The translations under genes and the position numbers were made by a program. Under the pieces are notes generated by a model, which did not search any database, was not told where the DNA came from, and was given only the letters and a program-made list of their open reading frames with translations. A stretch of 54,555 bases of DNA, filler included, from Sphacelaria rigidula (lineage: Eukaryota), in the NCBI GenBank assembly GCA_964200075.2. It is 5 parts of 5 records of this genome, joined end to end, with 100 filler letters (N's around TTAATTAATTAA, not from the genome) between each part and the next. Parts side by side here need not be neighbours in the genome. Positions count along the whole stretch, not along the records: positions 32,795 to 43,625 come from CAXNAA020005838.1; 4 more parts are not named here. One strand, written 5' to 3'. This document shows positions 4,197 to 52,591 of the stretch, piece after piece (the stretch's first letter is position 1; each line of letters opens with the position of its first letter).

Positions 4197-4380
4197 GGCG
4201 ATACCAGACAATAAGGCAACTCATCGTAGGCTGTTATCCTAATGTGAGATAATCAGCACCCTTTGGGCCTAACAATCTTCGCAGGATGCAGCTCACCCTT
4301 CATGCGACTCGCCGAACACATCATGGCGCTTTGCGCTTGGTGATTGAGTCCGAGCCTGGTCCGGCAAAACCTCGGCGTGG
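4197..4380 (+). mobile_element. LINE subfamily B 3'-region fragment
   Basis: Aligns with 8513-8695 and 29957-30110 (gcaactcat, aacaatct, ggatgcagctcaccc, cgccgaacaca, gcgcttggtga). Confidence 0.75.
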
Positions 4381-4818: not shown

Positions 4819-4890
4819 GGGGGGATACTCATTTATTGCTTGCCTTCGTCGTTTGACCGTTGACCACGCATCCCGTTCGAGACGGAGCAC
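4819..4890 (-). mobile_element. Severely 5'-truncated LINE subfamily A 3' end with C-tail
   Basis: Near identical to 37840-37915; flanked by an imperfect duplication cag..gtgct-G-run. Confidence 0.8.
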
Positions 4891-5179
4891 CGCAGCGTGC
4901 TGGCGGGGAGGGGGGGGGGGGCATTCTATTTCCTGTGTAGGAGGAGATGGACTCATAATTCTTCAGGGCAGGACGTGCGCGTTTTCATGATGCATTCGAG
5001 AGGCTGCTGCGTTGAGGGCTGCCCGGCGAAATTCCCTGTCTGCTCATATTGATTGTTGATTATGTCCTTAGTCGATGGCTCTGCGGTGCCCACTGGCGTG
5101 TATCTCTATCTACTCTGCTGCCCTGAATCCCTTGGCCTTTTCCCTTTTTTTCCATTATATAATTTAATTCTATTTTAAT

Positions 5180-8203: not shown

Positions 8204-8850
8204 GCCTGGTTCGGCGAGAACCCGGCGTGCTCCGTCTCGGCTTTGTAGGGGCGGATCCCCGATGGGGTTGGCGTCGGTTGGCGATGACGCCATGAAACAC
8301 GCCACTCACTGCGTAAGCTAGGCAACCAGGTCACCCATCTGTTTGCGCGCGTGCGTTTTTTTGCGGTAACCATGATGGTAGTCGCGCTAGATCATGTTGT
8401 GCGGCGTTGAAGAACCTCAACTCCGTACCATGGGGATGATCGTACCACGTAGTGTTTGAATGGTGAGACACCCATGAGGCAGTGTATATAAGCCGTAGCT
8501 GTCTCTGGAAGTGGCGATACCACACAATAAAGCAACTCATTGGAGGCCGTCATCCAAATGCAAGATAATCAGGAGGCTTCGGGCCGAACAATCTTAGGAG
8601 GATGCAGCTCACCCTCCATGCGACTTGCCGAACACACCACGGCGCTTCGCGCTTGGTGATTGAGTGCGAGCCTAGTCCGGCGAAAACCCGGCGTGCTCCG
8701 TCCCGGCATTGTAGGGATGCGAGGTCAGTGGCTAGTGGTCTGATGACTATGGCATGCATGATCATGAATACACCGTCCAAGAGTGCACCCCTCACCTCTA
8801 GACTCTTGGGTTGGCGTCGAGTGGCAACGGCGCTGTAAAACAAGCCACCA
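8204..8850 (+). mobile_element. LINE subfamily B 3' region (8460-8778) plus a partial upstream duplicate (8204-8305)
   Basis: Ends gctccgtcccggcattgtagggatgcgaggtcagtgg...catgatcatgaatacacc; 8460-8545 matches the reverse complement of 43726-43810. Confidence 0.75.
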
Positions 8851-9039
8851 CAACCTAGACATGAACTGTACTGTCACAGTTCGAAGACGGGGGACCGTCA
8901 CTGGACAAAGAAGGTCCCGGACCGAGAGACACAACAGACATGCGAAAACTTGAGTAACCCGATTTGTTTCCCCCCAGAAACACACCAAATGGATGGATAA
9001 AGAAGTAATTTGCCATTTTTTTCTTCTTCCGAAACCGTA

Positions 9040-10345
9040 TCACAGCCCGGACATGGATATGAAAATAAAGAGGCTGATCCTCCTTTTCATTTCACCTAGC
9101 ATAACACAGCCCGGACACGGACATGAAAAATAGAGAAGCTAATCCTCCTTTTTATTTAAGCTACCGTAACGCAGCCCAGACATAAATATGAAAGAAAGAG
9201 GCTGATCCTTCTTTTTATTTAACCTACCATCATAAGACACCCCGGACATAGACATGCTATTACAGATTAAGAAGCTAACCCTCCTAACTATTTAACCTAC
9301 TGCATAACACAGCCCCGATATGGACACGAACTGAGGAAGCTAATCCTCCTTTTTTAATTAGCATTACCATTGCACAGCCTGGACATAGACATAAAATAAG
9401 GAAGCTAACATTCCTTTTTCTTCAACCTACCACAACACAGCCTGGGCATACATGGACATGAAATGAGGAAGCTAACCCTCAATTTTTATTTAACATGCCA
9501 TAACACAGCCCGGACATAGACACGGAGCAGAGAAGCGAACCCCCCTTTCTATTTGACCTACCATAATACAGCCCGGGCATAGATATGAAATAGAGAGCTT
9601 ATCCTCCTTTCTATTCGACCTACCATAACACAGCCCGGACGTAGACATTAAACAAAGAAACGCACCCCCCTTTTATCTTTATCCTACCATAATGCAGCCC
9701 GGACATGGGCATGAAATAGAGTAGCTAACCCTCCGTTTTTGTTTAAGCTACCGTAACACAGTCCGGATGTAGACACGAGATGGAGAAGCTAACCCTACTT
9801 TTTTATTTAATCTACCATAACACAGCCCAGATATAGACACGAAATAGAGAAGCTCACCCTCCTTTTCATTTGACCTGCCATAGAGTAATACCAGTCCAGA
9901 CATCGACATGGAAAAGAGAAGTTAACCCTTCTGTTTGTTTAACACACCACAAGACAGCCCAGACATGGAGATGGAACAGGGAAGATAACCATCCTTTTTT
10001 ATTTCACCTACCATAACGCAGCCCGGACATAAACATGGAGTAGAGAAGGTCACCCTCCTTTTTCTTACCATAACACAGCCCGGGCATAGACATGAAATAG
10101 AGAAGCTGCCCCCCCCCTTATTTAACCTACCGTAACACAGCCCGGACATAGACATGAAATAGAGAAGCTAACCCTCCTTTCTTCAACTTACCATAATACA
10201 GCCCGGATATAGACATGAGGTAGAGAAGCTAACCCTCCTTTTCGTCAACTAATCATAACACAACCCGGACGTAGACATCAAATAAATGAGGAAGCTGACC
10301 CTCCTTTTTATTTAACCTACTATAACACAGCCCGAGCATGAACGT
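9040..10345 (+). repeat. Tandem array of about 21 monomers of about 63 bp at a LINE 5' end
   Basis: Consensus cctaccataacacagcccggacatagacatgaaatagagaagctaaccctcctttttatttaa; 21 units counted by eye. Confidence 0.95.
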
Positions 10346-10832
10346 GGAATAGCGAAAAAATAACGCATTTACTTCCCCATATCACGTCCGAAAACGACCG
10401 AGATTCTCCCCCATTAAAAGCAAACGTAAAACAAGAATAAAAGCCAAAACCTAGACATATAAGTATTGGCGTGAAGGTTGACCACCTTACATGCAAATCG
10501 AAAGTAAAGAAGATATAACCAGTACGGATAGAGTAGGGTCATCACCCCCTCCATGTCAAATTCACATGGAGGTTGGGACCTCGTGGTGAGGTACCCGTAA
10601 AATCTTGCCGGTTTTCATTGGTCGGGGGAAATCTGGTCGGAATATTTCCTGAAATTTCCGACATTAGGTGCGAACGGCGTCTAATGAAGGCGAGGGGTGG
10701 AAAATACATGGCATAAACGTCAAGACCTACTGCACTCATGAAAGAAACACCTTACCGATGACCGACCACATGACCTGAGAGAAGGAGCACCAAGCGGTAC
10801 GTAGATCTCTTGAGAGTGTAAAGGATAGAAGC
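9040..10832 (+). mobile_element. 5' part of a LINE (array, 5' UTR and start of ORF1), cut by the contig end
   Basis: Collinear with the reverse complement of 41660-43450; translates INVKTYCTHERNTLPMTDHMT*EKEHQAVRR versus INVKTYSTHETNTLPMTYHMTYEKEHQAARR. Confidence 0.85.
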
Positions 10833-10932: not shown

Positions 10933-10990
10933 AATGCTCACACGCCCAACGCAAACAACAAATGCGTACCCCCCCCCCCCCCCCCCCCCC
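10933..10990 (+). mobile_element. LINE 3' terminus (subfamily A-related) with poly(C) tail
   Basis: aatgctcacacgcccaacgcaaacaacaaatgcgtac plus C-run, versus aatggtcaaacgactaaggcaagcaacaaatgagtacg plus C-run. Confidence 0.65.
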
Positions 10991-11000: not shown

Positions 11001-11104
11001 GGGCCTGGTCCAGCGAAAACCTGGCGTGCTCTGTCCCGGCTTTGTAGGGATGCGAGGTCAATGGCCATATGCCCACAGCATGCAAGATCATGAGTACATC
11101 CCCC
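11001..11104 (+). mobile_element. 5'-truncated LINE subfamily B insertion with target-site duplication
   Basis: About 100-bp 3' end flanked by cccaacttcgggc (10992-11004) and cccaacttcaggc (11102-11114). Confidence 0.8.
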
Positions 11105-21692: not shown

Positions 21693-21763
21693 GGGGGGGG
21701 GGCGTACTCATTTGTTGCTTGCCTTAGTCATTTGACCATTGACCACGCATCCCTTTCGAGACG
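21693..21763 (-). mobile_element. LINE subfamily A 3' end with C-tail (cut by contig end)
   Basis: G10-cgtactcatttgttgcttgccttagtcatttgaccattgaccacgcatccctttcgagacg. Confidence 0.8.
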
Positions 21764-21863
21764 NNNNNNNNNNNNNNNNNNNNNNNNNNNNNNNNNNNNN
21801 NNNNNNNTTAATTAATTAANNNNNNNNNNNNNNNNNNNNNNNNNNNNNNNNNNNNNNNNNNNN
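21764..21863. other. Artificial contig-joining spacer
   Basis: Same 44N-TTAATTAATTAA-44N linker. Confidence 0.98.
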
Positions 21864-22700: not shown

Positions 22701-23000
22701 ACTACCTTCATGGGTGGACCAGTCAGCACTCCACACCTGGAATAACCAAAACGGTCGCTCAAAGGGTGGGACACTACAGCCGCGCGAGGTGAAGTTGCTG
22801 TACACGGAAAAGCGCTGAATTTAGATATTAAAAACGGCCCTTTTCATTCGCATTGCACCGCAGCATCGTTTTGCACTTTGTCAACTCCTTTTCTCGACTT
22901 TCGTATGACGTCTTTTCTCGTATATTTCGCTCGATTACGTCTATTTTCTGAACACGACTACATCGACCAATGTGAGATAATTGATCACCCGATTAATCCA

Positions 23001-23486: not shown

Positions 23487-24654
23487 TCATCGACGGAAAA
23501 AAATAGTGTAAATAGTGTCGAGCCAAAAATATGGCGTCATTGGCATGAATGAACGATCGTAGTTGTCAAGTGAAATAAAAGAATTTCAAACCGTGAGCTT
23601 CGGTCTTTCCCGTTGGACAGGCCGTCCAGAGTCATCAGCGCGCGCTATGCTTTTCATCACCTGCGGCAGGCGCTCCCTGCATACGTGCAGAAGGTTTATG
23701 CTGGTATCGCTGCCCAGCAAGCAGCCCCCGGCTTCATCGCATCCTAGGTATTTGCCTATCATGGTGACATCGCGCAAAGGACAAACAGGGTGAAACAATT
23801 AAAGAACGATCAAGACCTCTACTGTAGCGCAGGAACAACCTGGAAACACGGCAACCACCGGAATTCTTCAAATTTTACGGCCCATTTCATCAGTCAGAAG
23901 AGGTGTCCGGGTTATCTTCAGGGCATCCTTGTCTAATCAGTTTCAACATAGCGTGGTTTTCTATCTTCAGGCCGTATCTGTATTATCGAGCTTTAGGCTT
24001 AGGAGTGCTCAACCAACGCCTTGACCTTAGAGTAAACAATCTCGCGGCAACCTGAAAGTTATGTTTCACGGGACGGCATCTCCAGACTGGAACCAAGCGA
24101 TACTGTATACAGGTGTTGAACTAACGAAGAGGCTTGTTTGTTGAAGAAACTCCAGCTTCGAATCAAGTATTTTCTTCACAAGCATGTCTAAGCATGAAAA
24201 GTTTCACCTTGCCTCCTCGTACAGAAAGACAAGGTAGATGATGGCCGTGCGTGCACAAGAATCTCGTACAATAGTAGATTGAGGCGGCGAATAAAGCCAC
24301 AAAGTGCAATCTAACGTCTGTGTCCTACGGTGTACCGCACTCCGTGCTGGGCGCACAATACCGCATCCGCCTACACACACCGCTGCCATACTGTTGATGT
24401 GACCCATGCAAGTTGGGGTTACGAGCTGGGCCAGCGGATGTACTTTTTTTCGTAAGAAACGCGACGCCACGCTGAATTTGAAGAGGTGGGCGCTGAAATT
24501 TTGGCACGACATTTTCATCAAAAAGACGCCGAACATGTCGCGGGATACGAAGAAAAAAAAGGACACCACAACATTAGGACGACTCGAATTTCTGAGCAAA
24601 AACTAGGAAATGTCATAACTATGAAAAAAATAAAAAAACGCCGCATCTCGCAAT

Positions 24655-25200: not shown

Positions 25201-25577
25201 GCGGCGAAATTGTCTGCCGTGATTCCGCCGCGTTTCGTAATAAGAAACGTCTCTAAACACGTTATCGCGCCACGATGTGAGACGCACCCGGTACTAAATG
25301 CACTACAATCGCTTCATCGCCAAAACTGCGCCAATCGACCAGCGGCGGAGCTGTACGTTACCAGGTAGGTCTGCAGCTCACTGCAATGTGCTCAAGTCGG
25401 GCTGATTCGGGAAACGGACGACATCGTGGTGGGCCCACGGTTCCTAGGTTCTACGGCTGGCCCAGCTCGTGCTGGAATTATATCACACGGAGGAGAGCGC
25501 ACGTAACGGCGACCGCACGAAAGTGAAGGCCGATTCTGAGCCTTGTGCCGGAACTGTTACTGTAGCTCGGGACGGGC

Positions 25578-25652
25578 GGGGGGGGAGCGTCCTCATCTGT
25601 TGCTTGCCTCAGTCGTTTGACCATTGACCACGCATCCCTTTCGAGACGGAGC
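25578..25652 (-). mobile_element. Severely 5'-truncated LINE subfamily A 3' end with C-tail and imperfect TSD
   Basis: Flanks agctcggg(acg)ggcgggggggg on the left and agctcggggcggggggg on the right. Confidence 0.8.
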
Positions 25653-29956: not shown

Positions 29957-30190
29957 TGGCGATACCAGGAAATAAAGCAACTCATCGTAGGCTTTGGGCC
30001 GAACAATCTCAGCAGGGTGCAGCTCACCCGTTCAGGCGACTCGCCGAACACACCACGGCGCTTCGCGCTTGGTGACTGAGTACGAGCCTCGTCTGGCGAG
30101 ACCCCGGCGTGCTCCGTCCCGGCTTTGTAGGAATGCGAGGTCAATGGTCTTATGTTATGGCATGCATGATCATGACTGCATCCCCACCCT
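29957..30190 (+). mobile_element. LINE subfamily B 3' region with C-rich tail
   Basis: Ends gctccgtcccggctttgtaggaatgcgaggtcaatgg...catgatcatgactgcatccccaccctcccc. Confidence 0.75.
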
Positions 30191-31355: not shown

Positions 31356-32343
31356 AGAAATGACCAATATGAACAGTTTAGGCGTCCAGTCTTGTACTTG
31401 CAGTACGGATATTAAAAATACACACAAATGTAGGGAACACCCTACTCAGCACACCCTTGAAGAATTATGGGCGAAATGTGAAACCTTAAAACCCGCGTAC
31501 TATAAACTCAGGCGGGTGCGACCGTCCTGAAAACTGTACGTACTACAAGTTTCCGCGCGGTGTATCTAGTAATATAGGGTGATGAAGTCGCTTGATATTG
31601 ACGTTGAGTCAAGTCAGTTGGTGTTACAACTGATGCTTCGGTGGTGAAGCCATTTCCTTACTTCCTTGAACCTGGGATTTTTTCCAACACTGCTAGGTCT
31701 ATAAGAGGTTGGTGCCTGTGTTACAGGGTGGATAATGACCCTGTAAAGAAGGCTATGGGGTAATGCGGCAGCCGTAACGGCGTCGTGGTGTGCGTGTATA
31801 GGAATGCAGGTGTACCCTCCGATCGAAGGATTCTATCAACGCATATCGCTTGTCGATTGTTTCCTTAGTCGGCGGCTTTGTGGTGCTCCCTGATGTGTGT
31901 CTGTATATACTCTGCTGCCCTGATTTGTTTTCTTCTTCACTTCTGTAGTCTCCTTTCCTGTTCTCCCTTTTCCCCATGTTTCTCTCTCTCTATATATATA
32001 TATGTATTCTTTTCCTGCTGGTGTATGCAAAGTAATGTGATATCTCGCTTTATCGTGTTTCTTCGTAGATGAGAAGGCCCGTACTCTAAACGGAGCGCTT
32101 GTAGTAGATGAGCTGCAACCATTTCCTTTCCACGGTCTTTCGTTTTCTACGACTGGGAATGAGTGTGGTTTAGCGCCAAGAGCTTGTACACTGAAGCCAT
32201 GTGGCAGAGACCGGCCATATCTTCCTGTGCTTTCTATTCCTTTTGCTTTTTCTGTATTTCTTGTTTTTCACGTCTCAGGCCGCTCCTTATAATAGACAAA
32301 AATAAAAATCTGAAAAAGTGCTTTTTTGGAGCTTTTACGTCAT

Positions 32344-32690
32344 TTTACGCCCTAAAAGAGAGCTAGGCGGGGTTCAACACCTCGGGATGACTTGCTCTAC
32401 TAATTGAGGTGGTTGCAGGACATCTTCCCGTTTTCCGGTGGCCGCAGTTTTCATTTTGGCCAAACAAGAACATTTGTCCGAGAGCGGTAAAAAACAGTCA
32501 AATCTACAAAAACTGCCACTTTTCTCTGGACCTGACTGTTTTTCACCCTTCTTGGACAAGAATTCTTGTTTGGCCAAAATGAAAACTGCGGCCACCGGAA
32601 AACGGGAAGATGTCCCGGAACCGCCTCAACTAGTAGAGCAAGTCACTCCAAGGTGTCAAACTCCGCCTAACTCTCTTTTGGGGCGTAAAA
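32344..32690. mobile_element. Foldback MITE, same family as 23001-23486 (cut by contig end)
   Basis: ttttacgccctaaaagagagctaggcgg...gggatgacttgctctact...ggccgcagtt and its reverse complement; shared with the 23 kb copy. Confidence 0.88.
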
Positions 32691-32694: not shown

Positions 32695-32794
32695 NNNNNN
32701 NNNNNNNNNNNNNNNNNNNNNNNNNNNNNNNNNNNNNNTTAATTAATTAANNNNNNNNNNNNNNNNNNNNNNNNNNNNNNNNNNNNNNNNNNNN
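32695..32794. other. Artificial contig-joining spacer
   Basis: Same 44N-TTAATTAATTAA-44N linker. Confidence 0.98.
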
Positions 32795-33189: not shown

Positions 33190-33365
33190 TTCGAATACCA
33201 CGCCACAGCCTCGTTCGGCTGGACATAGCAACCTCTGATCGTCAGCTCCAACAGCGACGCAGGCCACGCCATGCTTTCGACTAAATGGATGATGCATGGT
33301 CCGAATGTTAGCTGCTGAAGCGACCCACTACTCATCGCATTTTCGTTTTGCGGCTTGAAGTACCT
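33190..33365 (-). pseudogene. Out-of-frame decayed FNIP repeats after a frameshift
   Basis: Alternative frame reads RYFKPQNENAMSSGSLQQLTFGPCIIHLVESMAWPASLLELTIRGCYVQPNEAVAW. Confidence 0.8.
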
Positions 33366-35583
33366 GCGAACGTCAGCTCTCGCAGCGTCGCAGGCCATGT
33401 CACACCCTTGATCGACTGCTTGAATGCTTCTCCAAATGTGAGCTGTTGCAGTGACGCGGGCCACGTCACACCTTTGATCGATTGGTTGAAAAACAATCCG
33501 AACGTGAGTATCTGCAATGATGTGGGCCATGCCACACCCTCGATCGGTTGATTGAAAACAAGTCCAAACGTCAGCTGCTCCAGCGATGCAGGCCATGCCA
33601 CACCCCTAATCGGCTGGTTGAAGTACATTCCGAACTTAAGCTGCTGCAGTGATGCAGGCCATGTCACACCCTCGATCTGCTGGTCAAAGAATTCTCCGAA
33701 CGTCAGCTGCTGCAGTGATGTAGGCCATGTCACATCCTCGATGGACTGATTGAACGATTCTCTGAAAATGAGTTCCTGCAGCGTTGTGGGCCACGCCACA
33801 TCCTCGATGGGTTGGTTGAACTTCAACGAAAACGTGAGCTGCAGCAGTGACGCAGGCCATGCCACATCCTTGATCGGCTGGTTGAAGTACATTCCCAACG
33901 TGAGCTGCTGCAGTGACGGAGGCCATGCTCCACCCTCAATCGGCTGGTCAAAAAAGTCTCCGAACGTTAGCTGTTGCAGTGACGCCGGCCATGCCACACC
34001 CTCGACCGACTGGTTGAATTGGCTTCCGAAGGTGAGTTTCCTCAGCGATTTGGGCAACGTCGCACCCTCGATCGGCTTGTTGAACCTCGACGAAAATATC
34101 AGCTGCTGCAGTGACGCTGGCCATGCCACACCTTCGATCGGCTGGTCGAAAGTAAATCCGAATACCAACTGCTGCAGTGACGCAGGCCATGCTACACCCT
34201 CGATCGGTCGGTCAAAGGATTCTCCGAACGTCAGCTGCTGCAGTGACATCGGCCACGCCACACCCTCGATCGGTTGGTTGAAATCTTTCCCGAACGTCAG
34301 CTGCTGCAGCGATGTGGGCCACGTCACGCCCTCGATAGGTTGATTGAACTCCGAAGAAAATGTCAGCTTTTGCATTGAAAAGGGCCATGCCACACCCTCA
34401 ACCGGCTGGTCAAAGTATTCTCCGAACGTCAGCTGCTGCATTGACGACGGCCATGCCACGCGTTCAATCGGCTTTTGAAAGCCTTTCCCGAACGTCAGCT
34501 GCTGCAGTGACGCCGGCCATGCCACACCCTCGATCGGTTGGTCGAAGCGCATTCCGAATGTGAGTACCTGTAGCGAAGCTGGCCATACTACACCCTCGAT
34601 CGGCTGGTCAAAATTGAGTCCAAAAGTCAGCTGCCGCAGCGACGCAGGCCACGCCGTATCCTCAATCGGTTGGTTGAACGTTACTCCGAACGTCAGTTTC
34701 TGGAGAAACGCAGGCCACACGACATCCTCGACCGGTTGATCAAACAAATCACCGAACGTCAGCTGATGCAGTAACGCAGGCCACACAACCCCCTCAATCG
34801 GTTGGTCGAACATTCGGCCGAATTCCAGCTCCTTCAGTGATGCAGGCCACGCTACAAATGCGATGGGCTGGTTGAAGAGATCCCCGAACGTCAGCTGCTG
34901 CAGGAACTCGGGCCACTCTACCCCTTCGACGGCCTGGTTAAATGTCGCGCCGAATTTCAGCTCCTGCAGCGAAGCGGGCCACGAAACAACTGCAATCGAC
35001 TGGTTAAAGAGTCGCCCGAATTCCAGCTTCTGGAGCGACGCAGGCCACTCCACCCAACCGATGGCTTGGTTGAACCTTGGGCTGAATCGCACCTCCCGCA
35101 GCGAAGTAGGCCAGACCACTCGGGAAATTGGCTGGTTAAACCCTGCTGATGTGGACGTGCGATCACCCCGAAACACAATCTTCCTGAGCTGCTGGGGCCA
35201 CACAATAGAGTCGAGACTACGGTCAAAGAGGTGGTCGAAGTATATGTTTCGTACGTCGGACAGGAGGATAGTCGCGCGAGACATGACCTCCTCGACAGCA
35301 CTGGACATCCACACGATGCTATGTGCTCGTAATGGAGGTACTCGAGATCCATGAGTGCGCCCTGTACTTCCTGTTATCGAAGCAGGGTATTGCTCGACGA
35401 TATCGGTCCATAGCCCTCGCGGTGTAGATCCATCCATTTTCACACTCAGGGCGCTGATGCCGCGACAAGCTATGCAGAGCTGCAGGGACGCCAGCTGTAA
35501 GTGTTTCGTGGGCAAAGATGAGTATCCCTGGGAAGAAGCTTCGTTGAGGGCAATGGTGAAGGCCCTCAGACAGAGGTCCCTGC
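33332..35583 (-). CDS. FNIP-repeat protein, main exon (28 repeats of 22 aa)
   Basis: Repeats FNQPIEGVAWPASLQQLTFGxx match the FNIP (LRR-like) pattern; long open frame; probable acceptor ...gtgtcccag|GC. Confidence 0.93.
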
Positions 35584-35749
35584 CTGGGACACGAACGAAA
35601 GGCAAGCGCTTTATTCGTTTGATTCGCGTGCGCGTGGTTATCAACAAGTGAGCATGTACAACCAGTCATGATCGGACTATCTTACATGAAACCTTGTCTT
35701 CAGCGGCCGTGCCACGGAGTTAAAGATACTGCATTTGTGGATAACCTGC

Positions 35750-36730: not shown

Positions 36731-36933
36731 GTGCGTGAGAGGACCGTGTGCTTAGAGGACCGCGTCGGAATTTGAACACCCCTATGGTTAGCATTAGCGT
36801 AAGGGTTAGTGTTAGGGTTGGGGTCAGGGGCGTGGTCCCTGCAGGGACTGGCCCGATTGGTTTCGAAAAACGTCGATCCTAAGATGTTCTTGACTATGAT
36901 GCGGTCCTTTAAGTACACGGTCCTCTCACGCAC
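36731..36933. mobile_element. Stowaway/Tc1-like MITE with internal telomere-like repeats
   Basis: TIR gtgcgtgagaggaccgtgtgcttagaggaccgc / gcggtcctttaagtacacggtcctctcacgcac; TA on both flanks. Confidence 0.8.
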
Positions 36934-36940
36934 TACAGTA

Positions 36941-37265
36941 GTGTGTGTGTTGCCAACTCATCATGTATTCTGGACGCCATTCTACAATTTTCGGCGTGTG
37001 GGCGCATCAGCAGGGATTACACAGGAGGGAGGCCAACGCGGGGTTTTCTTTTTTTGTACTCCACCTTTTTCGGTGCTTGCCTTACTTTTATCGCGCGAGG
37101 GGCTTAGCAGGTCAACCGTGAAGTCGAGTTCTGTGTATCCATGACATAATCGCTCCTAAATGTTGGGCAATGTGTGAAAAAAATCCCAGATCGTGTGACC
37201 GCAACGAAATTCGGATCCACGACCCAGCCGTCCGAAGGCTTAGAGGTTACCAACTGAGCCACCGG
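36941..37265 (-). mobile_element. tRNA-derived SINE
   Basis: Reverse complement head ccggtggctcagttggtaacctc; body collinear with 5461-5820. Confidence 0.8.
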
Positions 37266-39959
37266 AGCAACCCGCCTTGGCGTGCACGTACAACATTAAG
37301 TCGATTCCAGTGGTCGTCGCTTTTCGGAGGAGTTGCGAAGCCTGTACCTGTGATTCCTCAGAACTTTACGATCACCGCCTCGCCACTCTAAAAGCGACGC
37401 TAATCATGTTGAAAACGCTGCCGCCCTTCTTCAGTTGGATATTTAGGCAACAGTCGCAGGGTGGAATATGTCTCGGGGTTGCTGGAGGTGTCACTTGATC
37501 CACCACCTAAGTCACAGCTGATCATCGCTATCGAACAACACTATTCGGATGCCTGTCTTGTTGCTTGCATGTTGCCAGAATTGATTTCGATATGTGAAGG
37601 TACCACTGGGCCGACATTGCAGAGGTCAAAAGCCTCGCTCCGCAGCAATTCTACCGTATCATCACGGAATCAATGACGCGCGACAATGTGCACCGCCAAG
37701 GGTGACGTCAGATGACACCAGCGGCTGCGTGTCCATCTCGTCTGTTCCTCCATTAATGTCTGTCTGCCCCGGCTTCGCGACAGACAACATGCCGAGCACT
37801 AACCTCAACAAAGGATCATCCTACGAAAGGGAAAGGGGAGGGGGGGGGGGGATCTCCTGTGTTGCTTGCCTTAGTCGTTTGACCATTGACCACGCATCCC
37901 TTCCGAGACGGAGCGCTGTTCCTATTCCCAATAAAGCCACCTTGGACATTCCGGCACTCATTTCGTTTCTTTCATACATTGCTCAAAACCCTCTCACGTA
38001 TCTTATCCCCGTCCTGTTTCACTGTCTGTGTCCACCGTTTATCTCCTAGTATAGCCATCGTTTTCTCTCTACTGTCTCATGCATCAAACGATTTCATACT
38101 ATTTCCGTTCACGCCCCCGATTTCCCCCTCTAGCACGTCCCGTTCCTCCTTCTATAGTTTACATTCTACCACTATATGGCTTCTGCTCTCTATTGCTTTG
38201 CCACAGGGGCAGTTTTGCGCATCCACTCCCTCCTCCTTGCGACGACTGGGAAACCTCTTTCTTCTTTCTGGTAGGTGCTGGTGCCCCACCCGAAATCGCA
38301 GTTTCAATTTTTTCTCCGTGTCCATGAGGCCATGAAAATATGTTTTCGTTCCTATCCCCTTTCTCAACCCTCGGGAAACATTCATGTGTTCTTCCTCGTG
38401 TACTTTGCGCTTGAGCGCTCCTGATCCCCTCATTTGTATCATGCCTCTTACTTTTGTCTTGTACCCCGCGCCTTTACCTATGGACAGTACTTCGTCTTGG
38501 TTTCCTCCTGTACCCTTCCGTACTCTGCCGAAATCTTTATCCCACGTTTTTCTAGCCGTCTCTTCCCTACTTTTCTTCCATACATCCTTATCAACTATAG
38601 CTGACAATCCCTTTCTCCGCATGTTCTTTGCGCTATCTCACCATCACAAATTCCTCATGTCTGTTTTTGTTTCAAGTGAGTACATTCCAACTCTGCTCTC
38701 AATGCTGTACTACTCGTCGTCCTCGAGCAGCATTCAAGTATTTTCTTCGCTACTGCCACGTGTACTGTTTCCAACTTCTTCACCAACTTCACGTTCTCCT
38801 CTCATACTTCTCCTGCATATTCCAGCTTTGGTACAGTCACGTTCATCATGATACATCTCGTAATCCTAGTGTCTAGGTGCGAGCCTCTAAGGATCACGTA
38901 CATCCTGCCCATCTGTGGCTTACCCTTTTCGCTTACTTTACTTCTGTGTGCATGCCAATAACAGTTTTTTTTTATATCTCTATGCCAAGGTATGCATATT
39001 GATGTACGATCGGCAATTCCTCTTCTTCCCACTTTCATTTGAACTCTACCATGTCGAACTCCGTAGTTCTTGTTGTTGTTCCTAGTCTACGGGAGTTCTC
39101 AACTAGCAATTCTCTCATCCCCCTCGGAATACTGACAATTTTACCCTTCTGTGCCCGGAGTGTGGCTATCCCCTTGTTCATTTTCCCTGCCTGGTTCCCG
39201 TTATCTCTTTTATCCCTACCCACTTCTGTTTTATCCCGCCATTGAAACTCTTCATTTGTTTTATTCACCACATCTTCCCATACTCCCTCCTTTTTCTTCT
39301 GTACCATATGTTATACTTGATTTCGAAATTTGGTATACTCCTCCCATCCTACCGTAGTTTTACTCGATATGCATCTTGCGTGGGCCGCTCTCCCCACTGC
39401 CACGGCCTCTTTTGCTTCCTCATCCCACCATGTTTCTACTCTATTGCACATGTTCAGCTTCTTCCCTACAACTTTGCTCACTATCTATCAGACCAACTGT
39501 TGCCATACTTCTATAATCTTCGCTCTTGTCCGATTCCTTTCCATTTCGGCATCAATTGTGCCTACGCGTCCCAACAGCTCAGGACATTTCACTGCATTCT
39601 TGGCCATCTCTTCTTGAAACTCTTGCTGCTTTTCTTTCATATCTAGTTTATCGGTTCCTCATTTGTACAACCTCCTATCCCGCTTATTTCTTTTAGTCGT
39701 AGCTCTCGTCTGTTGGCTTTCTGTCCATATTAGGCAATGATCTGTAGTTCTCACGTCCCCCGCGCATACATGTAATTCCATTTCTTTACTTTTTCCATAC
39801 TCTACCACTATATAGTCAAGAACGGAGCATTTTCTGTCGTCTTTACGTATCCTAGTCCATGTCCATTGCGCCTCTGACTTTTGTGCGCTATCGTTCAGTG
39901 CCTTCATCTCGTTATGCTCAAGGAACTTCAGCATTGCTACCCCGTTCGTGTTTTTCTCA

Positions 39960-40209
39960 GACACTTTCTACGATAGCCCCCTCAAAAACCAGCTCAAAAG
40001 TGTCACGATAAAATGGTCATACAGCGTCTGATGTTTCGGTTCAGGCTAGATGAGGCGCCTCATATGGGCGACATTTGCGTGAACGAACCCAGGCGTGGGA
40101 ACTCCCAGCTGCTTGTTGTGCTCGGCTTTGTGCGTTTCGATTCACGTGGAAACTTTGTCTCACCAAACCAGGCCCTTTGGGGGGGGGAGGGGTACCATAA
40201 AAAGTGTCC
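39960..40209. mobile_element. MITE inserted in the LINE APE domain (Tourist/Harbinger-like)
   Basis: TIR gacactttctacgatagcccc / ggggtaccataaaaagtgtc; flanks tca and tta; splits APE between GQHGK and EKNTNG; similar terminus at about 8167. Confidence 0.7.
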
Positions 40210-42139
40210 TTATTTTCCCGTGTTGCCCAATGATATCATCCGGTTGACCTGCTGTTCCTACCCTTGCATCAAAATCTTCCACTAACATTACCTCTCCCTG
40301 CCTATTATACTTAGATTCATCTGCTGCTATCTTTCCAAACCTCCGCTGCATATCGTTCACCCTACCCTTAGGTACCCTTATCCATACGCTCTCGTCGATC
40401 ACTTCTAAAATGTCACACAGGTATTCCTTGACGACGAATCCTACTTCCCCCGCACCCCTGCTCTTGGGATCCTGTCCCTTCCGCGTTTTCCCTATCCATA
40501 CGTCATCTCCAATTTTGCATCGTATTTCCGCCCCCCTCTTTCTCCCCTAACTCTCGAATTCCTACTTTATCCAGGTCGCGTTTACTTGCTTGCTGGGCTA
40601 TGTCTATTCTTTTGCGCTCATCTGTGACGAATCCACACACGCCCCACGATCCTACTCTCAAATTCCTTTCCGAATCATTATCTGCTCTCGTGTTATCTAC
40701 TGTTCTCTCCACGTCGCTTTTAATGCGACTTTCCCTAGCTTGAGTGTTCTACCCGTTTTGGGATGGTCTTTTTCTATTTGCTTCGAGCTACTATGTCTTC
40801 TCCCCTTCCCCTTCCGGGCACTCACCTGTTCCCGCCTCCCTTTCCGTCCGTTTACCGCGGACTACATCCTAGGTTTGTTGTTCAATTAGCTATGCATCCT
40901 CTCCGTCCTACTCTTCTAACCCATGCCAACACCTGACTTGTCTCCATCCTTTCCTACTCCTTGCTCGCGGTCTGTTTTCGCGTGATTCAGGAGTATTCTC
41001 CCTCCCCTTCTACTTGCCCTCTTGCCACACAATATATACCAACTCCATTGCATTTCCTTTTGAACTCTACTCCTGTCATATCGCTTCGAACTCCGAATAT
41101 CAGCACTGCTAGTACTTTACCCGTCCACCCTTTACTTTTCCATCCGCCCTTCCTTACCGTCTCTTTCTCAATCTCTTTCGAGCAAAAATCTAGCTTGTTT
41201 GTTGCAAATGTATTGGTGGGATGTAGTCAACGCACTGGGACATCTCAGTCCTAGTATTTGTTGGGGGTCTGATTCCTTTTAGTTCGTTTGCTGGCTCACC
41301 GACACCAAGCAATGCCTCCAACACGGGCTCGTAGCCTCCAGCCACTTTAGAACACCTTCGACACAAGTACTCCACGTCTTTGCCAGGCAAGCTTCATGGT
41401 AAACCATACAGGCGTCCCACGATCGTATCTTTTATCTTCTCGCTCCGCTGCTGTACTGGTCACTCTCCTCCAGGAAAGTCGTTTTCACCGTGTAAGGTTG
41501 AAGGACGGCTTGCATAACACAAGGTCTTACTCGCATCGGGATGTCCCGTGCATCACTTTTCCCACTCCGTGTACGGTTCACCATGGGTCGGTACTCCACC
41601 AATGCTTCCGAGTAGACCTTTGCTGCCGGAAGTTTGGCCAACGATTCCCCCATACTCTGTAATAGCTTTTATCCTTCAAGATCTCAAGAAGTCTACGTGC
41701 CGCTTGGTGCTCCTTCTCGTAGGTCATGTGGTACGTCATGGGTAAGGTGTTTGTTTCATGAGTGGAGTAGGTCTTGACGTTTATGTCATTCATTATCTAC
41801 CCCTTCCCTTCACTAGGCGCATTTTGCACCTAATGTCGAAAATTTCGGGAAAATGGCCAGTTGTCCACCGCCTACTACAAACCGGGAAGGCTTCGTGGGT
41901 ATCAAACCACGAAACGCCAACCTCCACGTGAATTTACCATGAAGGGGATGAGGACCCGACCCCATCGGTAATTGTTATGTATTTTGTATATTCGATTTGC
42001 ATGTAAGGTGGTCACCCTCCACGCTATTACTTTTCCAGGTTTTGGTTCAATTCTTATTTTCCCGTTGTTATGATATGGGGGGAAGAATCTCGGCTATTTC
42101 CCGTCTTGATATGGGAAAGTAGATCTGTTTTTTCTCGCT

Positions 42140-43450
42140 ATTTTACGTCTATATCCAGGCTGTATAATGGTCGCTTCAAGAAAAAGGATAGATACTTTGT
42201 CTATTCCATGTCTATGTCCGGGCCGTGTTATGGTAGGTTAGGGAAAAAACAGGGTTAGGTTTTTATTTCATGGCCATGTCCGGGCTGTGTTATGGTAGAT
42301 GAAATAAAAATATAGCTAGCTTCTGTATTCCATGTCTATATCCGGGGCTGTGTTATGGTAGATGAAAGAAAAATATAAGCCAGCTTCTGTATTTCATGTC
42401 TATATCCGGGGCTGTGTCAAGGTAGATGAGAGAATGAACAGGTTTAGCTCCATGTCCATTATCAGGCTGTGTTATTTATTGTAGGTTGAAAAAAAGCAGG
42501 GTTAGCTTCATTATTCCATGTCTATATCCGGGGCTGTGTTATGGTCGGTTGAAGAAAAAGGAGGACTAGCTCCGTTATTCCATGTCCATGTCCGGGCTGT
42601 GTTATGGTAGAGCTAATAGGTTCAAGAAAACACAGGGTCAGCTTCTTCTTTACATGTCTATGTTTGGGCTGTGTTATGGTAGGATAAAGAGGAAGGAGAA
42701 CTAGCTTCATTATTACATGTCTATGTCCGGGCTGTGTTATGGTAGGTGAGAGAAAAAGGAGGACTGGCTTCTTCATTACATGTCTATATTCGGGCTGTGT
42801 TATGGTGAGTGAAAGAAAAAGATAAAGTAGCTTCTGCATCTCATGTCTATGTCCGGGCTGTGTTATGGTGGGTCAAAGAAAAAGATAAGGTACCTTCTGC
42901 ATCTCATGTCTATGTCCGGGCTGTGTTATAATAGGTGAAAGAAAAAGATAGGTGAGCTTCTGTATTTCATGTCTATATCCGGGGCTGTGTTATGGTAGTA
43001 GGTTGATGAGAGAATGAGCAGGGTTAGCTCCTTTATTCCATGTCCATTATCAGGCTGTGTTATGGTAGGATGAAAAAAAGCAGGGTTAGCTTCTTTATTT
43101 CATGTCTATGCTCGGGGCTGTGTTATGGTAGGATAAAACAAAAGCAGGGCTAGCTTCGTTATTCGATGTTTATGTCCGGGCTGTGTTATGGTAGGTTAAA
43201 GAAAAAGGAGGACCAGCTTCGGTTTTCCATGTCCATGTCCGGGCAGAACTAGCTTCTGTATTCCATGTCTATATCCGGCGCGCTGTGATATGGTAGGTTA
43301 AAGAAAAAGGGGGACTAGCTAGTCTATTCCATGTCGATGTTCGGGCTGTGTCATGGTAAGTTAAAGAAAAAGCAGGGTAACCTTCTGTAATTCATGTCTG
43401 TGTCCGCACTGTGTTATGGTACGTAAAAGGAAAGGGGTGTTATGGTACGT
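42140..43450 (-). repeat. Tandem array of about 21 monomers of about 63 bp at a LINE 5' end
   Basis: Repeated catgtctatgtccgggctgtgttatggtagg, the reverse complement of the 9040-10345 unit. Confidence 0.95.
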
Positions 43451-43625: not shown

Positions 43626-43725
43626 NNNNNNNNNNNNNNNNNNNNNNNNNNNNNNNNNNNNNNNNNNNNTTAATTAATTAANNNNNNNNNNNNNNNNNNN
43701 NNNNNNNNNNNNNNNNNNNNNNNNN
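43626..43725. other. Artificial contig-joining spacer
   Basis: Same 44N-TTAATTAATTAA-44N linker. Confidence 0.98.
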
Positions 43726-47341: not shown

Positions 47342-49598
47342 CAGTCATGGGTGCGCCTGACCCCCCAAAATGGGCAAAAAAAGTGTCACCGACCAAAAGC
47401 ACGCAACAGACCGGAGATCTCGTTCATCCCCTGATTATGCACGCCATCAAACTCCCCATAGTACTTGTGATTTGAGTGGGGTTTTCATTTCACGATTTCC
47501 CATTTTCGTCGTCCCGGGCTACGAACCACGGCGTGCCCCGGCTACACGCCGGCGTGTATTTGACCAAGCTACAATCTGATACCATTGTGGAACCAAAGCA
47601 GTTATGATTACGGAGAAAATCGCAAAAAAAAAAACATGTTTTTTCCACACCACTTGTTATAAACTCGAATCCCGATGAGATGAAAAAAATCGGCCACGGG
47701 ATTTGTAGCTGTCGTCTTGGCGCAGATGATGCAAAAACGGCCAATCGATGGCCTTGGCGATGAGTGATCGGAGCAACCGTTTGAGCTATTAGCGCAAACA
47801 AGCGCCTCCAACACTCGCCGGTTTCCACGAGATGCGAAAACCTCACCCCTGTCCAAGGGCCTCAGAATAGATTACATCCATGAGTGACTCTTGATAGTGC
47901 AGATGGTTGATACATCGCATGTGTGGAATGTTTGGCAGGTTTAGAATTTGAACCTTCGACCGAACCCCTAGAAGCTATCGTGTCTGCGAGACATTTACCC
48001 CCATCTGTGCATCGCTTATGATAGTGGCAAGAGTAGCGCTCGTTCTCCTGCACCCGGTGCCATCACCACGCCACCATTGATAGCGTAGCTCTATATCTAA
48101 TTCCACCTGGCAGCAAGTATGGACAAACTCTGAACTGAAGGAGAAAAGAAAGCCACAGAGCAAGCTGGCGTTCAAGAAGAGAGATCAGTATCCGCAATGG
48201 CAACACACTCCAACAGCCGTTATAGACATGATCATGAGTCGCACGAACGAAAGCAAGAATTATTTTTGCGACCTTGCAGCAGCGAAGCGAACAAATTGTA
48301 CCACCAACCCTAACCCTAACCACAACAGGGGCATACCGAGAATCCTCGGGCAAGGCGGGTGCAACGTATTCCCTCGGCGAAGTGTGCGTTGCCAGATCTC
48401 AAATCGGTGCCCCAGGCACCGATTCAGACAAACACGCTTTGTGGGCACGCTACGAGCATGCTGGGAGTACAGCTTCGGTGTTCACACTAAAATCAAGATG
48501 GACCAACTTACCCTTCCGAATTGTGAAGTATACTGCGTCAAGACAACACAAAAGACAACATAAAGTCATCGGCCCACTTTTACTGAAGCCAAATGTCACC
48601 GAAGCCCCATTCATGTCTTTTAGTACACCCACCCGTCCTACGACACGCGTCTGTTGTATCAGCAGTGGTGGGTGACGGCCGACGGTTTGTTTTAATCCTC
48701 TCTTGAAACACGATACCTTTGGAGTCCGATGAATATCATGCATAGTCATGAAATGAAAAGGCATGCCCACGGAACAACAAATACACTTGCACATAACGAG
48801 TCATTCATCCGCTAAAATTGTGGAACGATGGGATCCGATAAATCAAACTCCTCAAAACATGACGAGGAGGTCGACCAACATCCGCTCAGCCTACATGACA
48901 CACCCGGCGACTGTACTCCACTCGTCTGTGTAAGGGCCGTCCTCATTGAAGTTCATCAGTACGTATGGTTCTGTCGCATATTGAGCATATGATTTTGCCC
49001 CCATTTCGATCCGCGTTCCCAAAAATAAATGGTTCAGCGTTTCGGTTTCAGTTACCGGCGTTGGGCTACAAATGTTCATGGTTGATATTACTTGACTTGA
49101 GTGTGTACAACGAGAATCGGAATTCAAGTAGGGCTGACAGTCCCGTGGGCTCCTTGTGTGAGCAGAACGTGTTTTCGTTGAAATCGGCGCCACAGGCGCA
49201 GATTTGGGGTCTACCAAGGCCTCACTTTGTGTAGGAAATGTATGTACCGCCCTTGCCCGAGTGTTCTCGGTACGCGTTGGGTTGGGTCAACCCAACTAGC
49301 CTCCTGGCATTCCAGCGTATCGCAAGCGCGGACGAAAAGCGACGCAGTGGCATGCAATATATGAGGAACAAGAACGGAAGTAACGGTAGGGTTCTGATTT
49401 TGGAAAGCAGTTATGCGTTTCTCTAGATATTTCTTTGAATAAATTTTGGATCCATGTCGCTCTCTTCCGATGACGTTAGCCACATTTTCCCGACGAGCCT
49501 GGATAAGCACCAAAAGTCGACCTGTTCGTGTCTCTTCGTGATTTTGGTCGGTGACACTTTTTTTGCCCATTTCGGGGGGTCAGGCGTACCCATAACAG
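47342..49598. mobile_element. Non-autonomous Tc1/pogo-like TIR element, copy 1 (in a p47 intron, with nested insertions)
   Basis: About 60-bp TIRs cagtcatgggtgcgcctgaccccccaaaatgggcaaaa..gtgtcaccgacc; internal sequence collinear with 52592-53880. Confidence 0.85.
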
Positions 49599-49644
49599 TT
49601 TCTCTCCCGTTTATTGCTCTCGCCGCCGTTGGGCTGTCCTATAG

Positions 49645-49785
49645 CGCGCCTGATGCGGGTGAAGGAGGGTCTACCACTGCGCGAACCATTACCATGTACA
49701 ACGGAGGATTTACTGTGGACGACGGACCGTTTCGGAGATTGGATGACCCCGCGAACAAGGACTTTCTCAAGGATCTCGCCGCGGG
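49645..49785 (+). CDS. NSFL1C: p47/NSFL1C-like, SEP-domain exon
   Basis: TITMYNGGFTVDDGPFRRLDDPANKDFLKDLAAG; cctatag| acceptor and |gtaaga donor, phase 2-2. Confidence 0.93.
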
Positions 49786-50757
49786 GTAAGATGGTGCTTT
49801 GCGCGTTGGTGACACACGATTATTTCCACCCCATCCCCTGACGTGTGTGGTGTATTTCGATGGAAGCTAACGTGCCTTGTCTTCACATGAAGGTACGGAA
49901 TGGTATGGGAGGTGCAAGGTGCTAAGCTGTGATATACCTTGGTCACCCGTGTTATTGATACAAATGATACGCGTGCCAAGCTGGAAGGATTGTGTGGAGG
50001 CAGGGGCGGTTCGGTTGTGATGACTTTGCCTCCGGTAGACTACCAAGTAGGTGCGCTCGCCAGGGGTCGGTACGCTATATACGCCGAGCCTCAACGGTTG
50101 CATGCCGGAACGGACGGTTGGGACGTGCTGGTGTTGTCTCGGGTGTAGTTGTATTCGCCAGCGTTTTGTTAATCACGGTGAGCATGTGCCGAACTGAAGT
50201 GGTCGCATGCAGACAATGACGGTTGGGATTTGATGGTTTTGCGGTGGACTAGTGGATACCGAGCTGGAGCGGTAGCGTGTAGGCAGTTTCGATTGGGTGT
50301 TGATGGTTTGTGCTCCTTGGGGCTAGTGGGCGCGTCCACTTGGTGTGGTGCCCACAGTAATTGCGTGCGGGGCTGGAATGGTCACATGCAGGTCGGGGGT
50401 TTTCGGTCGGGATGGTTTTGACACTGTTGTCCCGGCAAATACAGCTTCGAAACGTTCCTTGCATTCATTTGCATTTAGTCGTTTTCGAAGGCATGCGAGC
50501 AACGAAGCCAACGAAGGGGTCAATGTTTCTGTGTTTTTCTGGAACCCCACCGCGAAACTCACCAAGTCTCCTTATGATCCATCTTGTGGCAGCATGACTA
50601 CTTCACCGCTGTATCGCACGTGAAACAGGCGATCTGATGCAAGTGTTGTCCTGGACAATCTTGTGTAGATTCACTTCGTGTGTCTTGCATCTCCTTCGGA
50701 TGTCTCGAAGAAATCTTATCTGGTCGTTTATCACCTCTCTTGACGTGGCCGACATAG

Positions 50758-50889
50758 GTTGGTACCGAAAGAACTAGAGGCCACAGCCACACCCGGCAAG
50801 GGTGCAGAGGTGCGTCTCGTTGACAAGCAGCAGGAGGAGTACGTGGCGCCGGCTTACGTGGCGTACGGTGGAGAGGGACAAACCATGGG
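50758..50889 (+). CDS. NSFL1C: p47/NSFL1C-like, SEP C-terminus and SHP-box exon
   Basis: LVPKELE...VRLVDKQQEEYVAPAYVAYGGEGQTMG; gacatag| acceptor and |gtgagt donor, phase 2-2. Confidence 0.92.
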
Positions 50890-51415
50890 GTGAGTCTTGC
50901 TCCACTCTAGTTTTGTGTACGTTTCAGATTGGGCGATTCGTCCATCACGCTCGATCCTGCTGACAATGGTGTCGGCTCTTACGCCAGAGTTGAGGGTTTC
51001 TTACTTGGCGCTAAGACTTCGTGTGGTGCGTGAAGTCGATATGTGCATCCGGTGCTTCGATTATCGCCCTATATTTTTTGCGAAACACAGACTTGCGACG
51101 AGGCGGGGGAAGTGGTGCTCAATTCTGCCATCAACGAATGCTGTAGATCCCCGAGACATCATGGCCCTTGCACAGCATTTTGTCAACACCTCGTGGTCTT
51201 TGGAACTAGAAAAAACAGAAGCCGCGCACATTCTTCAAACCTCGCGTACTCCATATCTTATCCTCCTCCGCACTTGATCGCATATTGCGCGTGATCACAC
51301 ACCACGACGCTTCCATATATTCTCCCAAGCTGAATTTGGCTATCTCCACACACGCGGCGCTCTCAACCGCCCCCGCTGTGTTCTCTCTACATCGCCTGCT
51401 CTTCCTCTCGTACAG

Positions 51416-51601
51416 ATCATCGGCTGTAGCTGAGAGCGCCGTGACAACCGCAGACAGCGCGCCCACTGCCGCTGAAGCACCCGAAGTAGACACCGCGCAA
51501 CCATCCACAACGCTGCAGATAAGGCTACACGACGGTAGGCGGGTTAGAGCGCAGCTTAACATGCATCACACCGTGCGACACGTCCAGGCGATCATCGCGA
51601 G
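51416..51601 (+). CDS. NSFL1C: p47/NSFL1C-like, UBX-domain N-terminal exon (gene 3'-incomplete)
   Basis: VDTAQPSTTLQIRLHDGRRVRAQLNMHHTVRHVQAII; cgtacag| acceptor and |gtaatt donor, phase 2-2. Confidence 0.93.
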
Positions 51602-51890
51602 GTAATTCACTGTTGCGCCCCTACACGGGGATAGGGCAGGTGACAAGGGAGGGGGATTGAGGGCTTGCTTGGAGGTCGTTTCTTGTGTGCTTTGCCCACA
51701 TAGGTGCGTAGTTTTTGTTTTTCGAATGGTGAGGGCGGATCCGGGTGCGGCATGCAAGCTTCCAGAGTGTCTGGCGTGTTTTCAAGAGCGACGATTTAAT
51801 CTGCTGGTGTGTGTGCAGGGATGTCAACTTCGGCCCATCAAATAGATGCAAGCAATTCAGACCCAGAGCCAACCTTGGAATCTTCTGTGA

Positions 51891-51938
51891 GATGTGGGGC
51901 ATGCTAACGCCCGCCAACGTGAGCTTGAAGTGCGATGC

Positions 51939-51995
<57 letters not shown>

Positions 51996-52170
51996 ACCCC
52001 CCCACCCCACCACCACCGGCGCCTCTCCTGCCCCCCCCCCCACCCCCCCCCCGCACAGGAGGCGGCCCCCCCCCCGGCNNNNNNNNNNGGGATGTGGGGC
52101 ATGCTAACCCCCGCCAACGTGGGCTTGAAGTGCGATGCTTAACCCCCCCCCCCCCCCCCCCACACCCCTC
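51891..52170 (+). mobile_element. Third C-tailed retroelement 3' end, present twice around a small gap
   Basis: gatgtggggcatgctaac.cccgccaacgtg.gcttgaagtgcgatgcttaa plus poly(C) at 51891 and 52091; loosely similar to 10933-10990. Confidence 0.55.
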
Positions 52171-52591
52171 CTAAACTGAACACTCGAGTAGGGAAGCAAA
52201 TATCGCTAACGCAGAGGAACCGGCATTGAAATCACGGCAGCAGGTCCACTCCTCGCAAAAACCCTGCTGCCCGAGAGAACACTTGTGATTTTGAGAGCTT
52301 AGTAAGGGGGTGTGAGCTCGGTCGTGGCTTCTGCATTGGGAGGCGGTTCGATCGATGTACTGCACATCTGTCCCGTTGCAGATTTCTGTGAAGAACATGC
52401 GGATAGGAATTTGAAACATGCCAAATAGGGGTATTGTGGTATCGTCCACTTACCGCTGCTGGCATTTTTCAAGTATGGTCCACGCTCCCCACCCATCCTC
52501 TGAGAGCGTGCTTATTCTAACAAAAAATGCATTGCCGGTAGGTATTGCGGCGTGTCAAACGTCAACCGACGGTACATGAAGTCATCACGTA

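Follow-up and report, generated by a model that had tools for sequence, protein, structure and literature searches.

Whether a long interspersed nuclear element (LINE) ends here in a run of C instead of poly(A), and what keeps that end conserved, is the question raised by a stretch of 54,555 nucleotides (the window) from the brown alga Sphacelaria rigidula (assembly GCA_964200075.2). A decayed LINE, termed LINE-A, occupies the minus strand and ends at 37916-37840 in a conserved module of about 65 nt followed by C12, and the run stands directly after GCTCCGTCTCGGAAGGGATGCGTGGTCAATGGTCAAACGACTAAGGCAAGCAAC. A first-pass annotation of the window had proposed the C-tailed end, and this proposal was confirmed in the window copies, in contigs of four public sequencing runs and in three contigs of other assemblies (L041, L071 and L173). 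The feature is very probably the 3' end of a LINE of the apurinic/apyrimidinic endonuclease (APE) type and of the brown-algal RTE-X kind. The copies of this family (family A) in the window were as follows:

37840..37851, minus strand: tail of the LINE-A copy, C12 (read as G12 on the plus strand), crossed unchanged by contigs from the unique flank.
37852..37916, minus strand: conserved 3' module, encoding the last ~20 residues of the open reading frame (ORF), with the boxes GCTCCGTCTC, GGGATGCGTGGTCAATGG and GCAAGCA and a terminal ATGAG-like box.
25578..25652, minus strand: 5'-truncated A copy with C8 and a C-rich stretch on both sides (a candidate target-site duplication, TSD), found by BLAST and by pattern match.
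21693..21763, minus strand: A copy with C10, truncated where the piece ends and matching L173 at 71/71 positions.
4819..4891, minus strand: A copy that starts with GGTGCTCC and ends in C6; a second run, C12 with a tail-like end, stands just upstream, at 4910-4921.
10933..10990, plus strand: diverged A end with C22, cut by the piece end, found by BLAST.

A BLAST search with the 131-nt end of the element recovered 25574-25652 (88.6%), 21691-21763 (90.4%), 4819-4888 (88.6%) and 10933-10985 (77%). The near-identical ends with C-runs that had been reported at 4819, 21693 and 25578 were thus recovered, as was the diverged end at 10933; the diverged end reported at 51891 had no similarity to family A by BLAST at E<=0.01. 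The identity to the intact element in L173 was 92.6% for the copy at 25574, 100% for that at 21691, 90.5% for that at 4819 and 82% for that at 10933. A 46-nt module pattern with at most 3 mismatches had 2 matches in the window and 0 in 100 shuffles. Moreover, 20 C/G runs of at least 8 nt were present, whereas 200 shuffles averaged 1.3 and never exceeded 5. Past the C-run, the flanks of the A copies were unrelated to one another.

The window consists of five pieces of ~10.83 kb, which are separated by spacers of N44, 12 nt and N44 (10833-10932, 21764-21863, 32695-32794 and 43626-43725), and a further 10-N gap lies at 52079. Distances across the spacers are meaningless and features at piece ends are cut; hence, the copies at 10933 and 21763 are incomplete. 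For genome-wide evidence, Logan contigs of four public runs from three studies were aligned to 36900-41600 at 80% likeness, and contig counts given below as four figures are one per run.

The window copy leaves the family consensus at 37860. At this position, 1007, 691, 109 and 1053 contigs ran into AATGAGTACG followed by at least 20 C. Contigs anchored in single-copy flank crossed 37840-37851 into the module, one with 0 differences (X1 record 2, covering 37236-37882) and another with 4 differences (X6 record 24). The contig differences from the window copy were mostly C>T and T>C on the plus strand. The summed word depth of the tail bin was ~10^5 times that of the flank, a ratio that is not usable as a copy number. 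The same 3' end was found in three contigs of unrelated assemblies, where it was followed by C8 (L041), C11 (L071) and C13 (L173) and then by unrelated sequence. These contigs came from two scans. A degenerate 18-mer of the module gave 119 loci in metagenomes, of which two were true matches (L041 and L071), and a module 20-mer gave 53 exact matches in genome contigs, of which one was true (L157/L173; L173 is a eukaryotic contig binned into a bacterial metagenome-assembled genome). The other 52 exact matches (L120-L172 except L157) were rejected: all fall in a bacterial gene (motif VMGCVVNGPGE) that we take to be ispG/gcpE, and they reflect a six-codon coincidence with GCVVNG of the LINE, not homology. 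The scan of viral contigs for the module gave 0 matches.

The anatomy of the element was read largely from L173 and L041. L173 has an ORF of 1359 codons without a stop (positions 116-4192) with the domains Exo_endo_phos (residues 170-392) and RVT_1 (740-989), and 1014 open codons of the same ORF are present in L041. It is a single ORF, in which an N-terminal APE endonuclease precedes the reverse transcriptase (RT), with no separate ORF1 (seen in L173; the 1360-aa relative P0002 starts with M). In L041 and L173 the ORF reads through the whole proposed hairpin (GAPSRKGCVVNGQMTKASNK), and terminates at the TGA of AAATGAGTACG, with 5 nt left to the C-run. Hence, the module is coding sequence and not 3' untranslated region (UTR), and the idea of a 3' hairpin beyond an ORF2 had to be given up, as did the comparison with L2/CR1-type elements, which a single endonuclease-RT ORF that is coding to within 5 nt of the tail does not fit. 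The description as near full-length also failed. P0002 maps to 41157-37861 in several frames (tblastn, residues 1-638 and 988-1360); its residues 639-987, ~350 codons of the RT core, are deleted in the window copy near 39053/39040, and the copy carries a 264-nt insertion and many stops. A Pfam search of 19 + 67 window ORFs gave no RT or APE match in the decayed copy, and only FNIP, SEP and UBX domains were found. The parts of LINE-A in the window are listed below:

37861..41157, minus strand: decayed single endonuclease-RT ORF, with the APE region at ~40650-39720 and a C-terminal Cys/His motif at ~38215-38165, from tblastn and three-frame reading.
39953..40216, strand not assigned: 264-nt insertion in the APE region; the joint 39952->40217 occurs in 3, 4 and 5 contigs of X1, X3 and X6, that is, other genomic copies are without the insertion.
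41158..42134, minus strand: 5'UTR, with a decayed antisense copy of the module at ~41740-41685.
42135..43441, minus strand: 5'-terminal array of tandem ~63-nt monomers, in a piece that runs to 43625.
8997..10832, plus strand: 5' part of a second LINE-A copy, with a monomer array (9034-10356), then the 5'UTR with an antisense module at ~10745-10800; cut by the piece end.

Each array holds ~20 tandem monomers and is reminiscent of the promoter monomers of mouse L1. An intact element would accordingly comprise a 5' array of ~63-nt monomers, a 5'UTR of ~1 kb, one ORF of ~1360 aa with the endonuclease before the RT, and a templated C homopolymer. The nearest named relatives of the ORF were proteins of an Ectocarpus strain, 57% identical, and closer matches had 76-96% identity. 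The RTE-X clade was reportedly defined by Kapitonov, Tempel and Jurka in 2009. The sense strand of the LINE is strongly G+A-rich; at 38001-42000 the plus strand had a GC skew of -0.36 and an AT skew of -0.35.

The conservation of the module was then compared with that of the remaining element. The module bin was identical at 53/60 columns between L173 and the window copy, whereas 18 of the 19 other full 60-column bins had 35-47/60, which places the module among the two best. Its high conservation may reflect a coding constraint, an RNA constraint or both. In 7/7 A copies, CGTCTC/GGGATG can pair as a stem capped by a GNRA loop, and the arms of this stem are invariant. The second hairpin (UGGUC-loop-GACUA) is not claimed here; it was intact in most A copies and in the B copy at 8778, and broken in A4819, B11104 and B30190.

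The last ~65 nt of family A recur in a second, non-coding family of at least 313 nt (family B), which has nothing else in common with A. The B ends at 8774, 11104 and 30185 share four boxes with A, namely GCTCCGTC.C, GGGATGCG.GGTCA.TGG, GCA.GCA and ATGA.T.C beside the C's. The module boxes expected for this subfamily were therefore present, and the C-rich end was found at 11104 (C5) and 30185 (a C-rich stretch) but not at 8774, where no C-run follows. In family B, the boxes lie behind its own TAG stop, which precedes the GGGATGCG box; the loop is 4 nt longer, so that the frame is shifted relative to APSR, and the upstream sequence is non-coding. A third family consists of tandem units (51891-51971 versus 52091-52171, 93.8% identical), which end in TTAA + C53 and TTAA + C19. 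The copies of both families are as follows:

8462..8774, plus strand: longest copy of family B (at least 313 nt), without a remaining C-run.
11003..11104, plus strand: 5'-truncated family-B copy directly behind a C22 run, with the TSD candidate CCCAACTTC.
29958..30185, plus strand: family-B copy with a C-rich end.
4197..4380, plus strand: family-B copy without the 3' module.
51887..52161, plus strand: third family, two tandem units with TTAA + C53 and C19, with more C-runs and the 10-N gap between them.

The 264-nt insertion in LINE-A, read on the minus strand, starts with a C-run and then GGCCTGGTTTGG, like the truncated-B starts at 8194 and 11003. It is proposed that family B is mobilised in trans, and the TTAA(C)n family is probably mobilised likewise. 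Recognition of the module in trans is supported, because family B keeps the nucleotide boxes despite the TAG stop, the shifted frame and the non-coding upstream sequence. A 3' module common to autonomous and non-coding families is the signature of 3'-end ("stringent") recognition, which is partly supported here.

The junctions of the copies were examined for traces of insertion. TSD candidates that start in the C-run, with matches of 8-15 nt to the upstream flank, were found at 4/4 copies with both junctions:

A25578: CCCCCCCGCCC, a score reached by 74/2000 shuffles.
A4819: CCCC.C.AGCAC.CT, a score reached by 116/2000 shuffles.
B11104: CCCAACTTC, a score reached by 91/2000 shuffles.
B30190: TCCCCTCT, a score reached by 226/2000 shuffles.

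These candidates agree with the C-rich TSDs of an Ectocarpus repeat library discussed below. New copies often stood directly behind older C-runs, as for B11104 behind the C22 of A10933 (10990/11003) and A4819 behind a C12 (4910/4891), and contigs also connected unit, C-run and next unit. The C-rich flanks, like the anatomy, the tail with its genome-wide recurrence and the shared module, are direct observations. By analogy with L1 and with microsatellite-tailed LINEs, the endonuclease would nick a C-rich target on its G-rich bottom strand, the G-run released as a 3' end would anneal to the (C)n of the RNA and prime reverse transcription, and an RT bound to the conserved ~65-nt module would start the cDNA there. 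The (C)n itself would be part of the transcript of the donor copy and be maintained by slippage, since polyadenylation cannot add C. Such a process would give C-tails of variable length, TSDs beginning with C, and a preference for older C tails that would build up tail-to-head clusters.

Many copies in the genome are short. Exactly at 37914, 569, 472, 80 and 561 contigs, about half of those arriving there, broke into a run of at least 22 C followed by GGT. Because of this sharp break, many copies are units of ~75 nt that start precisely at GGTGCTCC with a C-run before them, and some of these tail-only units stand in tandem. The edge at 37914 is too sharp for random 5' truncation. Furthermore, the 5'UTR of L173 (4735-4805, minus strand) contains an antisense copy of the whole module with perfect blocks of 13/13 and 9/9. 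The duplex predicted between this copy and the 3' module of L173 has an energy of -65.5 kcal/mol, compared with -23.2 +/- 6.1 kcal/mol for 1003 other windows of the element. Both window copies have the antisense module at the corresponding position in decayed form (41685-41740, minus strand; 10745-10800, plus strand), and its complementarity ends at GGT, that is, at the 5' edge of the tail-only units. For the decayed copy in the window, the strongest duplex predicted with its own tail lay elsewhere than at the homologous 5'UTR site.

Two explanations would remove the tail from the element. The C/G runs might be sequencing or assembly artefacts, for example two-colour poly-G calls. The C53 at 51943 adjoins more C-runs and the 10-N gap, as an artefact might, and its exact length is for this reason unreliable. 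The runs, however, lie between fixed conserved sequence and unique flanks, and the same junction recurs in four runs of three studies, in three unrelated assemblies and, as far as its annotation table goes, in a curated library from a near-gapless assembly (PMC12477816). The worry about two-colour chemistry raised in the first-pass annotation was also checked, and contigs of two studies cross the run unchanged. The probability of an artefact is thus close to nil; chemistry is ruled out for practical purposes, with doubt attached to the length of the C53 alone. The C-run could instead be a pre-existing target, the element being site-specific and adding no C, so that the TSD's downstream copy would account for all C after the module. 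All four TSD candidates start in the C-run, the C's after the module in B11104 are explicable almost wholly by the TSD CCCAACTTC, and a long C-run stands directly upstream of the short unit in the 569, 472, 80 and 561 contigs noted above. The consensus, by contrast, has at least 20 C after the module in about 100-1000 contigs per run; the length of the run ranges from 6 to 53, and A25578 and A4819 have no long run upstream to match; and the entries of the Ectocarpus library give "(C)n 3'" (PMC12477816). A target without a tail is therefore very unlikely, and the two readings overlap, as they would for L1 and A-rich targets.

Recognition of the module as RNA was weighed in the same way. The module might be kept solely for the C-terminal peptide G-C/R-V-V-N-G, which lies 7-8 residues before the stop, with the RNA not recognised at all. 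The pattern [GR][CR][VE]V[NYD]G was present in the last 25 residues of 26/120 relatives, down to ~38% identity; it stood 7 or 8 residues before the end in 24/26, the preceding ~40 residues were hypervariable, and the hairpin lacks covariation support. A proline run at the C-terminus was not found among these ORF relatives (120 matches). Against a peptide as the sole constraint, family B retains the nucleotide boxes after a TAG stop, in another frame relative to APSR and in non-coding sequence, and the library entries for the RTEX-N families of Ectocarpus likewise share only the 3' 60-100 bp (PMC12477816). This explanation is hence distinctly unlikely on its own, and peptide and RNA constraints may act together. 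A further role for the module is rather doubtful, namely that, on the predicted duplex, it would serve at once as C-terminal peptide, as recognition RNA for the RT and as one arm of a long-range 5'-3' duplex. The RNA may then circularise through this duplex, and cleavage of the duplex or a stop of the RT at its edge may yield the defined mini-retroposon. A duller alternative is that the antisense module is an old antisense insertion of the short unit, inherited by the family; the choice between insertion and fold-back would rest on three copies.

Several results weigh against a C-tailed RTE-X element whose 3' module is recognised as a structure. Some copies keep only C5-C6, and the copy at 8774 has none. 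Taken singly, no TSD candidate is strong (p about 0.04-0.11), since matches arise readily between C-rich flanks. Among 10 copies of A and B, no compensatory change was found in hairpin 1: in family B the arm reads CGTCCC (U.G to C-G, by a U->C change on one side) and the loop has 9 nt, one B copy has a broken pair and another opens with U.G; this sample is too small to exclude a structure. The minimum-free-energy z-score was -2.2 for L041 and +1.35, +0.46, +0.40, +0.26 and 0.0 for the five others, that is, 5/6 folds were no better than shuffles. The membership in RTE-X is suggested by homology to Ectocarpus proteins and by the match with the published description, and the 3' end of the transcript is deduced from genomic DNA. 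Of the lineage with a structurally conserved RT-recognition element that had been proposed, the C tail and the shared 3' module stood, but the structural conservation did not.

Other features of the window touch the LINE less closely:

49439-51602, plus strand: exons of a SEP + UBX domain gene (p47-like), with the TTAA(C)n units just downstream; the SEP-domain exon (49439-49786) is 97% identical to an Ectocarpus sp. 8 protein and 89% to a Choristocarpus protein, which places the host among the brown algae.
33332-35665, minus strand: open frame of 777 aa with 17 FNIP repeats (PF05725, E 3.6e-119), which may belong to the host or stem from a giant virus.
23000-23487 and 32343-32690: a pair of related palindromes, with self-complementarity of 79% and 85% and a likeness of 68% to each other.
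18456-18923, plus strand: weak RT-like similarity, with 21-23% identity to P0002 and P0007, probably another, older retroelement.

Facing ends of GCCGAGATAG with C8 (35750-35768, plus strand) and C7 (35895-35913, minus strand) stand ~125 nt apart. The pair may represent tails of one more C-tailed family, or else a short element with inverted repeats.

LINEs seldom end in a C homopolymer, and because polyadenylation cannot make such a tail, C-tailed elements offer a natural test of target-primed reverse transcription by homopolymer annealing. They are among the most abundant brown-algal repeats, and the thousands of C/G runs that they create break short-read assemblies. The first-pass annotation knew of no description of such a tail and had named an existing annotation as the outcome that would count against it. 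A library of Ectocarpus transposable elements, as far as its entries go, already annotates (C)n 3' ends for RTEX-1 and RTEX-2 (PMC12477816), and little is added as discovery since both the tail and the C-rich TSDs are recorded there. The points added, as leads for mechanism studies, are the stop 5 nt from the tail, the peptide motif whose spacing to the stop is constant in distant relatives, the precise tail-only units and the antisense module in the 5'UTR. No other relevant description of a poly-C LINE tail was found in the literature, in a text search that the parentheses of "poly(C)" may escape.

L1 has a poly(A) tail and TT/AAAA targets, is often 5'-truncated and inserts into older tails. 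The element resembles it in its homopolymer tail, in candidate TSDs that start with the tail base, in frequent 5' truncation, in insertion into older tails and in the presumed priming by a target homopolymer that anneals to the RNA tail. It differs in that the C tail does not come from polyadenylation and would be templated or made by slippage, in that the 3' module is shared with partners, as in the stringent type, and in its single ORF. Stringent pairs of LINEs and short interspersed nuclear elements (UnaL2/UnaSINE1), the I factor with (TAA)n and RTE elements with (TTG)n/(CAA)n likewise have a 3' end common to autonomous and non-autonomous families; here, however, a single C forms the repeat unit, the module is part of the ORF and not of a 3'UTR, and the stem-loop is without compensatory support. 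Simple-repeat tails of this type are described, in the part of the source consulted, as probably kept by slippage (PMC3747384), and the Ectocarpus table lists RTE-1_Ec32 with "(CAA)n 3'" (PMC12477816).

The closest likeness is to the RTE-X families of Ectocarpus sp. 7, of which the element, compared by description, is a further (C)n-tailed member. In the library entries, RTEX-1a_Ec32 is given as "single EN-RT ORF; (C)n 3'" with 5867 bp and a "C-rich" TSD, and RTEX-2_Ec32 as having "(C)n termini/TSD" (PMC12477816). RTEX-N1_Ec32 (607 bp) has a 60-bp 3' end that is 83% identical to RTEX-1_Ec32/RTEX-2_Ec32, with tandem occurrence possible, RTEX-N2_Ec32 has 188 bp, and the supplementary table gives C-rich TSDs for all four RTEX families (PMC12477816, Supplementary Material 3). 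RTE-X families and their non-autonomous partners are reported there as the most abundant transposable elements of Ectocarpus, in a main text that, in the portions seen, is silent on the tail; coding overlap, tail-only units and a 5'UTR antisense module are likewise absent from these portions and from the annotation table (PMC12477816). Set apart by description, the element of S. rigidula belongs to another species and family, with 57% identity to the best Ectocarpus protein, and carries a long 5' monomer array. It shares with RTEX-1/2_Ec32 a brown-algal host, a single endonuclease-RT ORF, a (C)n 3' end, a length of ~5.5-5.9 kb and a very high copy number, its candidate TSDs are C-rich like theirs, and its short partners resemble RTEX-N1/N2_Ec32, in which the shared part is limited to the 3' 60-100 bp and which can occur in tandem.

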